In this document: positions 40,701 to 43,700 of the stretch, piece by piece
Layout of the letters: each line of letters starts with the position of its first letter
How positions within the stretch are numbered: the stretch's first letter is position 1
Origin: Escherichia coli
GTDB lineage: Bacteria > Pseudomonadota > Gammaproteobacteria > Enterobacterales > Enterobacteriaceae
Length of the DNA stretch: 64,000 bases
Assembly (NCBI RefSeq): GCF_050920415.1
Contig: NZ_CP169309.1
Reading direction: 5' to 3' (one strand)
Position numbers and translations under genes: made by a program
Notes under the pieces: generated by a model
The model's database searches: none
The model's input: the letters and a program-made list of their open reading frames with translations, nothing else
What the model was told of the DNA's origin: nothing

Positions 40701-43700
40701 TTGTAACAAGGTGATATGTGCCGTAGACGCATCAGCGTTGACATTAATTGATGTGCTAAGCGTGGAGCTACCATTTTCCAGACTGGCCTCAACGGTATCC
40801 GGCCTCCCTCCTGATTCTGTCGAGGAACGGGTATTGGTATAAGTGACGGTTGCCTTACCCTGTTCGTTCGTTACGGCTTGGCCGCCATTCGTCATTTCAG
40901 CAGAGTTTGTACTGCTGGTGAAACTCACAGTTACACCTTTCACCGGAAAGCTATTATTATCAACGACTGTCGCGGTGATGACGCTGCCGGTGCTATTCTG
41001 CGGGGTACCAGCGATTATGCTGTTTGGGACAGACGTCAACCCAATAATTTTTGCCGCAGCTGTGTCGCCAATAAAGTGCACAGTTTTGTGGTCGCTGGCA
41101 CCATTATTAGCAAGTGATACAGTGACCGTCTGCTCACCAAAGGCAACGCCTACGAGAGTGGCCTGCGCGATGCCAGACTCATTGGTATTACTCTCCCCTG
41201 GGGTGAGGGTGAGGCCTGAAGAGGCTGAGCTGAATGTTACCGGAAGATTGTTCACCTCATTGTCGAACTGGTCTTTAACCGTTGCAGTTAACGTTGCACT
41301 ATCGACGCCATTACCCGTGATCTCATCTTTTGACATCTGCAGGGCAACCTGAGCCGAGGTTTTGTCTGCCACAAATGTTACCGGCTGCGAATCACTGGCA
41401 TTGTTATTAATCAGCGTCGCGGTAACTGTATGCGTGCCCGCTTTTTTACCTTTGAGGGTGACATGCGCTTCCCCATTGGCCTGGGTGACGGTAATACCGT
41501 TATTTTCAAGGGTAAAGTTTGCCGCGACGTCTTGTGGCATGGTGAAATTCACCGCTATACCCGCCACTGGATGATTCGACGGATCTTTCACTGTAGCTGT
41601 CAGCTGCACACTGTCGCTGTTATTCGTCACCACCTGGTGAGCAGGGATGTTCAGCGTGAGCCGTGCGTTGCTGGCATCGGGAGCAATATTAACTGTCTTC
41701 GAATCGCTATTGCCGTTAGGCAGTGTGGCTTCGGCTGTATGAACACCCAAAACCGTGCCCTTAAGGGTAACTTCAGCAACACCACTGTCGTTAGTGTTGC
41801 TCGTGCTCTGACTAAGTTGAGTATCAGCCGGATCGGTACTGAAGGTGACCGGTAGATCTTTTACTACGTTATCAAAAGGATCTTTTACTGTTGCTGTCAG
41901 CGTCGTCTCATCCACGCCATTCCCAATGATTTCCACTTTCGATGTTTGCAGAACGACAATTGCGCTGTCCTTATCCGCCACGAATGTGACTGGTTGCGCA
42001 TCGCTGGCATTATTGTTACCCAGCGTTGCGGTAACCGTATGCGTGCCCGCTTTTTTGCCTTTGAGGGTGACATGCGCTTCGCCATTGGCCTGGGTAATGG
42101 CAATGCCGTTATTTTCAAGGGTAAAGTTTGCCGCGATGTTCTGAGGCATGGTGAAGTTCACCGTTATTCCCGCCACCGGATGATTCGACGGATCTTTCAC
42201 CGTCGCCGTCAGCTGCACGCTGTCACTGTTATTCGTCACCACCTGTTGAGCAGGGATATTCAGCGTGACTAGCGCGTTGCTGGCATCGGGCGCAATATTG
42301 ACTGTCTTCGTATCTCTGTTGCCGTTAAGCAGTATGGCTTCGGCTGTATGAATACCCAAAACCGTGCCCTTAAGGGTAACTTCAGCAATACCGTTCTCAT
42401 TAGTATTACGCGCGTTCAGACTCAGTTGCGTGTCTGCGGGAGAGGTGCGGAAGACTACTGACAGATTTTTAACCACGTTATCAAAAGGATCTTTCACTGT
42501 TGCTGTCAGCGTCGTCTCATCCACGCCATTCCCAATGATTTCCGCTTTCGATGTTTGTAGAACGACAACCGCTCTGTCTTTATCCGCCACAAACGTCATT
42601 GGCTGTGCATCGCTGACATTGCTGTTAGCCACACGAGCCGTGATCATATGCGTGCCCGCTAACGTGCCGGTCAGGGAGGCGATTGCAACCCCGTTACTAT
42701 CCGTCATGCCTTTTCCGCTGTTGCTAATCGAGAACCGACTTGCGACGTCGTTTGGCACAGTGAAGGTGATTTCTTTATCTTTTAGTGGGTTGCCATTTTT
42801 ATCCTGCAAGGTTGCAGTCATATGTTGCGGTGCTGTGTTGGTGACGGTGATATCACCTGAAGGCACACTGAGGGTCAGGGCAGCAGTACTTTGATCACCG
42901 ATAAAATTCACCTGTTGACTAGCCTGGGAACCAGAGCTGACAGAGGCCGTAACCGTATAATCACCATTTTTCAAACTGGTCAGCGTGGCTGTGGCGATCC
43001 CGTCGTGGCTATTCACTTCGGTTTGGCTCAGTTTCGCCTCTGTTGAATTAACATTGAAGGTGACCTTGACGTCATTGAGCAGGTTGCCTTTTGCATCCCG
43101 GACTGTAGCGGTCATTGTGGCGCTGTCATTGCCGTCAGCGACCACTTCATTTTTCGACTTCTGTAGAACAACCTGCGCGGTACTCGAGTCACCGACAAAA
43201 CTGACGATTAACGTTTGTTTCACGCCATTTTCAAGGGTGACTTCAACCGTGTTGTCTTCCTGCTTACTACTTTTCAGATCAAAAGTCGCCAGACCATTAA
43301 CATCCGTTTTTGCGGTGTTTTGATTGTTGAAGGAAGTTGCCGATCCGTTTAATACCGCAAACGTGACGGTATGATCATTGATTGGGTTGCTTCCTTCATC
43401 AGCGACATTGACCGAGACGGTATTTGCTGCATTCTCATTGGCGAGCACACCATTATTGCTGGCAGATAATGTCGCAATTTTCGCTGACTGCGGGTTGGCG
43501 TCGATGATAAATCCAGCGGTATGCAAATCTTCATTCCAGTTTTGCATTAACAGCTTCGCAGTAAGTCCACTGCCTTTGGTATAGGCGGTATAGGTTGCCT
43601 TATAGACGCCATCTGCGGTTTCTTTCCAGTCTGTAGTGACTCCTGGTTTCACGTTGTCGATGCTGACTGCAGTATTCAGTTGCTGTTTTTGCTCCTTAAC

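Follow-up and report, generated by a model that had tools for sequence, protein, structure and literature searches.

A probably old duplication of two Ig-like domains, partly homogenised and repeatedly recombined, in the long allele of the Escherichia coli adhesin gene yeeJ

The stretch of DNA analysed here (the window) comprises 64,000 nucleotides of an E. coli genome (NCBI RefSeq assembly GCF_050920415.1, contig NZ_CP169309.1) and contains yeeJ, the gene for an inverse autotransporter adhesin that is built of a beta-barrel, approximately 17-18 Ig-like domains and a putative C-terminal cap. A single long open reading frame covers the repeat region of the gene (37707..45770, minus strand), and initiation at the ATG at 45695 gives the product of 2662 aa that had been predicted in an earlier reading of the letters and open reading frames (the sequence-only reading). 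An intact CDS of E. coli MFDS1022581 (WP_135275979.1) shows 100% identity to this gene. Pfam IAT_beta (PF11924) was matched at aa 144-419 over model positions 2-279 of 279 (E 9.8e-114), placing the barrel N-terminal to the Ig passenger, the arrangement of type Ve autotransporters. Matches to Big_1 span aa 741-1650, with eight strong domains in aa 741-1542 whose start-to-start spacing alternates between 104 and 99 aa, and a local profile made from Pfam Big_1 domains resolved a tandem Big_1/Invasin_D3 passenger of 17-18 Ig-like domains at aa 536-2357; these are numbered D1-D17. The overall order of domains is IAT_beta, Invasin_D3/Big_1 and Invasin_D4, the last being matched at the C-terminus with an E value of 1.7e-5, together with a non-significant match to the C-type lectin domain Intimin_C (E 0.21). 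A periplasmic LysM domain ahead of the barrel has been reported for YeeJ on the basis of Prosite (PMC5595812); with Pfam, no LysM match was returned for aa 1-700 at E <= 10. No equivalog model of NCBIfam was passed by YeeJ (IatC N-terminus, 1177 bits against a cut-off of 2400), and family assignment is therefore based on Pfam domain content and on identity with annotated yeeJ at the DNA level. The solved chain nearest to the repeat unit by sequence is an intimin fragment (6tpl_A, E 6e-8), and structure matches were weak and at the level of intimin only. The surroundings are those of the chromosomal yeeJ locus: genes for a glycosyltransferase of family 9 (GT9), shiA, amn and yeeN lie downstream, and asnT and a tRNA-Ser gene lie upstream, at a distance of 8.7 kb owing to an inserted segment.

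When all in-frame offsets across yeeJ were scanned, an offset of 609 gave the highest identity over 300 nt (0.897), compared to 0.61 for the next best (offset 1218, within the same array) and 0.57 thereafter; the period-609 repeat is real and lies far beyond chance. A sliding profile placed the good match at approximately 41380-41980 against 41989-42589, with weaker similarity (60-70%) extending approximately 150 nt beyond one side of the matched stretch and 90 nt beyond the other. The full extent came from the offset scan: an automated repeat search recovered just a 300-nt piece at 88%, and Tandem Repeats Finder, which handles periods of 500 at the longest and is silent on 609, reported no repeat. 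The repeat consists of two in-register units of 609 nt (window 41349-42566, minus strand), each encoding 203 aa and two Big_1 domains (Table 1), and the tandem arrangement of a two-Ig-domain unit of approximately 609 bp described in the sequence-only reading is thereby borne out. Its description of the DNA of the two copies as almost identical does not hold. In the phase used there (41390 onward) the identity is 86.4%, with 83/609 mismatches and no indels, and in the phase of the domains it is 85.4%; across phases the values run from 85.4 to 86.7% over 609 nt, with 83-89 mismatches, no indels, and a longest identical in-register run of 48 nt. Since no identical stretch exceeds this length, the hazard to assembly that had been attached to the repeat is small. 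D5 and D7 are 81% identical as protein and 86% as DNA, and D6 and D8 are 89% and 85% identical, respectively. The remaining pairs of Ig domains in yeeJ are, as had been claimed, clearly more divergent (18-51% aa and 43-60% nt identity, against 81-89% aa for D5/D7 and D6/D8). A more diverged third copy had also been said to follow the pair; diverged relatives do exist, but they are split, with D4 and D9 on opposite flanks. By these domain similarities, the pair is situated within an older and eroded array of three units, the third of which is halved between the two flanks.

Table 1. Features of yeeJ and of its 609-nt repeat in the window.
Feature	Position	Strand	Description
yeeJ CDS	37707..45695	-	2662 aa; open reading frame whose start codon is preceded by GGGAAGG, resembling a Shine-Dalgarno sequence
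D4	42567..42878	-	Older diverged relative of D6/D8 (41-42% aa); last ~94 nt 77% identical to the end of D6
Copy 1 (c1), D5 + D6	41958..42566	-	aa 1044-1246, from the domain map; 85.4% in-register identity to copy 2
Copy 2 (c2), D7 + D8	41349..41957	-	aa 1247-1449, from the domain map
D9	41040..41348	-	Older diverged relative of D5/D7 (50-51% aa); 65-70% identity between its first ~120 nt and the beginning of D7
Divergent patch of copy 1	42389..42475	-	Unit positions 92-178; copy-2 counterpart 41780-41866; 65-67% identical, dS saturated
Homogenised centre of copy 1	42082..42388	-	Unit positions 179-485; copy-2 counterpart 41473-41779; 90-95% identical between copies
Segment missing from K-12-type short alleles	41581..42486	-	906 nt, beginning within D5 and ending at the corresponding point of D8; blastn and domain mapping
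GTGAAAGATCC 11-mer in D5	42487..42497	-	Part of the conserved LTATVKDP-coding stretch; identical 11-mer in D8 at 41581-41591; join of the K-12 hybrid domain

Two length variants of yeeJ, of the MG1655 type and the UMN026 type, have been described (Martinez-Gil et al., 2017, Sci Rep 7:11326, PMC5595812). The latter is longer by 906 bp, corresponding to three extra Big domains, and this 906-bp fragment was noted to be "made up of a repeated section"; no functional difference between long and short YeeJ was seen in biofilm assays, and the long allele accounted for 11/42, 8/26 and 17/44 of the yeeJ carriers there (PMC5595812). In keeping with this, an allele of 7077 nt (2358 aa) aligned to nt 1-3209 and 4093-7983 of the window gene with an offset of exactly 906, inside the passenger and amounting to the same three further Big domains, and the protein of K-12 length (2358 aa) is 304 aa shorter than that encoded in the window. 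Long alleles of the O157:H7 type measure 7983 nt, or 7077 + 906, and the window yeeJ exceeds them by 6 nt through two 3-nt indels. It is approximately 92% identical to most long alleles, those of the O157 type included; only eight genomes carry a yeeJ at least 99% identical to it, of which that of MFDS1022581 is identical. The comparison with the O157 allele is mosaic, with identity ranging from 74 to 98% along yeeJ and from 74 to 85% over gene nt 5700-7000. To judge by these alignments, the gene in the window is the published long (UMN026-type) variant in a diverged allelic form, which is already known and ordinary for large repeat adhesins.

Among 5,426 complete E. coli genomes, the region D4-D9 was present in 2,913. 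One unit was found in 48, a complete count in which all rank above the partial matches, and three units were found in at least 29. The sizes of the remaining two classes were estimated, from coverage classes and from a sample of rows at even spacing, rather than counted genome by genome: about 1,170 genomes would have two units (1,253 with at least 80% coverage, minus the other classes), and about 1,650 would be of the K-12 type (33/60 evenly spaced rows). The long share, at approximately 40% of the yeeJ carriers, is similar to that published, whereas the one-unit and three-unit classes are additional to the two length variants of that paper (PMC5595812), the only one found in a literature search for further length classes of yeeJ. 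Repeat number thus differs between strains, as the sequence-only reading had supposed. The two-copy structure together with its copy-specific patches (see below) was shared by all long alleles examined, including that of the O157:H7 type, which is 8% diverged. A collapse or expansion of the repeat during assembly, such that the copy number would be wrong, is a concern of some precedent, repeat-rich adhesin genes such as upaH having been misassembled before (PMC5595812). Here it is vanishingly improbable: with 83-89 mismatches over 609 positions and shared runs of 48 nt at the longest, the copies can be placed by ordinary reads, the same architecture is present in over a thousand independent complete assemblies, and the open reading frame is intact.

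Averaged over the unit, copies 1 and 2 have diverged to a dS of 0.45 and a dN of 0.089, whereas the allelic dS between the window and the O157:H7-type allele over the first 3.1 kb of yeeJ is 0.08. The divergence is distributed unevenly along the unit (chi-square p = 3e-9), with 3/91 mismatches at unit positions 1-91 (dS 0.09), 29/87 at positions 92-178 (dS 2.28), 31/307 at positions 179-485 (dS 0.30), and 26/124 at positions 486-609 (dS 0.79), and this uneven pattern was repeated in two other long alleles. The sequence-only reading had judged the duplication to be recent, a view at odds with the mean dS and with that of the least-converted patches (0.8-2.3), which is at or near saturation. A recent tandem duplication confined to this strain or a narrow lineage, lengthening YeeJ by approximately 300 aa over an ancestral K-12-like protein, would account for two observations, namely that the adjacent 609-nt units are far more alike than any other pair of domains in the gene and that the protein is 304 aa longer than one of K-12 length. 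It is nevertheless very improbable, given that the copies are 85-86.5% identical, that both of them and their copy-specific patches are carried by 8%-diverged alleles and by the approximately 1,170 complete genomes noted above, and that the short allele is shorter by 906 nt rather than 609, a difference that traces to its hybrid domain.

The same copy taken from different alleles is 91-96% identical, compared to 85-88% for the two copies inside one allele. Against its counterparts in other long alleles, copy 1 of the window shows 95-96% identity; copy 2 of the window shows 91-92% identity to its own counterparts, but 85-86% to copy 1 of those alleles. As the same copy is more alike between alleles than the copies are within an allele, the duplication would predate the split of the alleles. 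The contrast is greatest in the patches at positions 92-178 and 486-609, where the same copy is 90-99% identical between alleles and copy against copy is 64-79% identical; of 42 differences between copies 1 and 2 that are fixed in three long alleles, 24 lie in the patch at 92-178. The central stretch (179-485) behaves otherwise: identity of the copies within an allele (89.9-95.1%) equals that of the same copy between alleles (89.6-94.1%), no differences between copies 1 and 2 are fixed across the three alleles, and those that occur are mostly specific to an allele, with 4-5 of the 31 in the window shared with either other allele. No donor for the divergent patches was found elsewhere in the window. 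These observations fit an old duplication whose copies have been partly homogenised, probably by gene conversion, the latter being read from patterns of identity in three to six alleles. The word "old" is used in the sense that the duplication predates the divergence of present-day yeeJ alleles, on the basis of dS and of sharing between alleles rather than of a species tree.

In a scan with the D4-D9 peptide of one genome per bacterial species, no relative of yeeJ was found outside E. coli. A corresponding scan with the barrel region, again one genome per species, returned relatives that were approximately 50% identical at best, plus a few fragments, with none close outside E. coli, and in these relatives no Ig domain was more than 34% identical to the repeat unit. 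Two of the fragments, which are short and 97% and 95% identical, belong to non-enterobacterial records and were taken as E. coli contamination; another fragment, 72% identical, lies on a 4-kb contig. The species tree accordingly provides no date for the duplication.

Of the 42 fixed differences, the one-unit alleles of KW21, EC12 and MB64 show the copy-1 state at the first 24 and the copy-2 state at the last 18, and the switch occurs inside the homogenised centre. Compared half by half with a long allele (strain Z1323CEC0014, allele L004), the KW21 unit shows 100% and 99.2% identity. The open reading frame of MB64 is intact (2465 aa); those of KW21 and EC12 are frameshifted. In E. coli O157:H7 TR01, which also has one unit, the switch lies at unit positions ~1-71 and the upstream part is from another allele, with the inter-allelic join exactly at the unit boundary; this different breakpoint and the foreign upstream part indicate an independent event. 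All four one-unit alleles that were typed are chimeras of copies 1 and 2. At the other extreme, a protein search recovered many three-unit YeeJ proteins from E. coli and Shigella, of 2851-2880 aa, and none longer. The middle unit of three-unit alleles L006 and G1/2 begins as copy 2 and continues as copy 1, with the switch at positions 509-551, and VCSW7 has yet another mosaic in this place. Strain N3 has a middle unit of the copy-1 type throughout, and its units 1 and 2 are 98.7% identical; this duplication is truly recent, but it is in another strain than that of the window. With at least five distinct marker patterns or breakpoints among the chimeric units, yeeJ has the variable unit number and the recombinant junction units of a copy-number-variable tandem-domain adhesin. 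As read from these markers, the one-unit chimeras and the reciprocal copy 2/copy 1 middle units represent products of unequal crossover at several independent breakpoints, and they show unit number to change by recombination between the copies.

These junctions bear on the possibility that one of the copies was imported, such that unequal recombination between diverged alleles either made the pair or replaced the patches, and dS overstates its age. The highly mosaic nature of yeeJ alleles (74-98% identical along the gene), the inter-allelic join of TR01 exactly at a unit boundary, and the very uneven dS along the unit would each be consistent with such an origin. Import is rather unlikely, however: no single unit of a pure copy-1 or copy-2 type was found, 4/4 typed one-unit alleles being chimeric, and the patches are common to all long alleles examined, which would place any import before their divergence. 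The duplication would not be recent either way.

Short alleles of the K-12 type have the order D4, hybrid domain, D9. The first 80 nt of the hybrid domain match D5 and D7 (96.3% and 95.0%, respectively), while nt 58-312 match D8 (91%), and the join falls at GTGAAAGATCC, a motif that D5 and D8 share exactly. Deletion in silico of 41581-42486 from the window gene is in frame and leaves 2360 aa; over the join, the product aligns with the short allele at 94.3% identity and gap-free. The short allele has neither the copy-specific patches nor D6 and D7; it thus could not have given rise to the long form, and on this comparison the K-12 form is a deletion derivative that would have arisen by in-frame loss of 906 nt, not by a gain in the window. 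The difference from K-12 YeeJ of approximately 300 aa stated in the sequence-only reading is accurate in size (304 aa, against 2358), but not as a gain. Because the first 80 nt of the hybrid fit D5 and D7 alike, a single deletion of 906 nt and a two-step loss (609 nt plus 297 nt) are equally possible. The reverse order of events, which is the published account if read literally, with the MG1655 type as the base form and the long form gaining 906 bp by duplication of sequence in the short gene, draws on the relatedness of the 906-bp fragment to flanking sequence that is kept in the short allele; it is highly unlikely. The short allele has the hybrid Ig domain (~80 nt of D5/D7 type, then D8 type, joined at 11 nt of identity), the reverse order would require sequence that the short allele does not have, namely the copy-specific patches, the C-terminal part of D5, and D6/D7, and the one-unit intermediates are copy 1/copy 2 chimeras matching the long-allele halves at 100% and 99.2%.

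Taken together, the window very probably carries a long allele of the UMN026 type with an old two-Ig-domain duplication that has been subject to conversion and unequal recombination, and from which the K-12 type arose by deletion. A unit of 609 nt would have been duplicated in tandem before today's yeeJ alleles of E. coli diverged. Unit positions 1-90 and 179-485 would since have been kept alike in the two copies by gene conversion, while the patches at 92-178 and 486-609 would have diverged, one of them to synonymous saturation. The stretches that remained alike would repeatedly have served as substrates for unequal homologous recombination, presumably RecA-dependent and involving unequal crossover between sister or incoming DNA, with one-unit copy 1/copy 2 chimeras and three-unit alleles with a copy 2/copy 1 or copy-1-like middle unit as its products. 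In the K-12 allele, the in-frame deletion would have fused, at the 11-nt motif, one third of a D5/D7-type domain (the N-terminal one) with the remainder of D8. The Ig stalk would keep the C-terminal cap at a distance from the outer membrane. The rod of invasin, with five domains, is approximately 18 nm long, and scaled from it each unit would lengthen the stalk by two Ig domains, or roughly 7-8 nm.

In its architecture, YeeJ resembles other members of the intimin/invasin type Ve family (FdeC, IatC and IatD), having the same IAT barrel, a tandem Big_1/Invasin_D3 passenger and a putative terminal cap, but its stalk of 17-18 Ig domains is much longer. The streptococcal alpha C and Rib proteins are variable-repeat adhesins in which stalk length is changed by the gain and loss of units, as in yeeJ. 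Whole-domain units are likewise gained and lost by homologous recombination in YrIlm of Yersinia ruckeri (PMC6714894) and UpaH of E. coli (PMC5595812). The arrays of YrIlm, UpaH and alpha C/Rib are made up of many nearly identical repeats that change frequently, whereas yeeJ has only one to three units that are 85-92% identical in most alleles, and few distinct events were seen across thousands of genomes. Whether the yeeJ unit amounts to a recurrently recombining length module, with at least four classes (K-12 hybrid, one, two and three units), a derived K-12 form, and stalk length under selection, is a doubtful proposition. Reach past the O-antigen or capsule could serve as an example of such selection; it is conjectural, whereas recurrence and direction are shown by the sequences.

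The additions made here to the published account are modest, namely the derived state of the K-12 allele, the one-unit and three-unit classes, and the recombinant junctions. They matter little for biology at large, and correct a plausible misreading of the yeeJ repeat. The length classes of yeeJ exceed the two published, and gain or loss of units took place on several occasions, which is relevant to typing by the size of PCR products and to studies that link the "long variant" to pathogenic strains. The YeeJ of laboratory K-12, which is used as the reference and in tools for surface display, would be a derived, shortened form that contains one hybrid Ig domain, and the long form in the window would be closer to the ancestral layout of the protein.

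The sequence-only reading had taken the repeat within yeeJ of the window strain for a recent tandem duplication. This was not borne out; a duplication of the truly recent kind was found instead in another strain, E. coli N3, whose three-unit allele (L043, NZ_CP031609.1, 2892337-2895380) carries first and second copies of the 609-nt, two-domain unit that are 98.7% identical. The one-unit allele of O157:H7 strain TR01 (L044) was compared with yeeJ of O157:H7 strain 17B6-2 (L046), and the two were identical downstream of the join and differed by 21 mismatches across the ~500 nt upstream of it. 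This pattern suggests that the TR01 allele arose by out-of-register recombination with DNA of another allele.

Disruption of the gene was also encountered, as IS3-family elements interrupt yeeJ in several O157:H7 and O103:H2 genomes (strain 1130, L045, and the genome matches H3, H17 and H178); the element within yeeJ of O157:H7 strain 1130 is IS1203. The adjoining gene encoding a family 9 glycosyltransferase (see table) is truncated beside a K-12-length yeeJ allele, and it contains an internal stop in both KW21 and EC12.

Features of the yeeJ locus in the window (window coordinates)
Feature	Position	Strand	Remark
Glycosyltransferase family 9 gene	36260-37330	+	adjoins yeeJ; intact
yeeJ, last ~385 nt	37707-38090		different in the Z1323CEC0014, KW21 and 2870-aa alleles
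yeeJ-asnT segment	45696-54386		
LysR-family regulator	46463-47341		inside the yeeJ-asnT segment
Cysteine hydrolase, hypE- and hypF-like genes, HAD hydrolase	within 45696-54386		
tRNA-Asn (asnT)	54387-54462		

On the other side of yeeJ, a segment of ~8.7 kb separates the gene from asnT in the window; in all seven of the other strains compared, asnT lies only ~310 nt upstream of yeeJ. The segment looks like an island inserted at the asnT hotspot. The tRNA genes of the window, four for tRNA-Asn and one for tRNA-Ser, are located at 27264-31570 and 54387-55543, and look like the cluster of asn tRNA genes that E. coli commonly has near yeeJ.

Fragments of yeeJ were found in records filed under other organism names (L007, L008 and L038). 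Those in a Bacillota MAG (97% identical) and an Alkalicoccobacillus assembly (95%) most likely represent enterobacterial contamination of the assemblies, and the fragment in a Collinsella MAG (72%) may stem from a different enterobacterium and represent a genuine orthologue.

Alignment of the window gene with the O157:H7-type long allele revealed 97-98% identity over the first 3 kb, falling to only 74-85% at gene nt ~5700-7000 (window ~38700-40000), which encodes domains D13-D17. The alleles of yeeJ are strongly mosaic, and their distal stalk is hypervariable. With the alleles of Z1323CEC0014, KW21 and the 2870-aa proteins (L002, L004, L006), the match to the window gene ends at nt 7604, and the sequence of the C-terminal cap differs from that of the window. 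The putative lectin-like domain at the C-terminus thus circulates among yeeJ alleles in the form of two or more cassettes.
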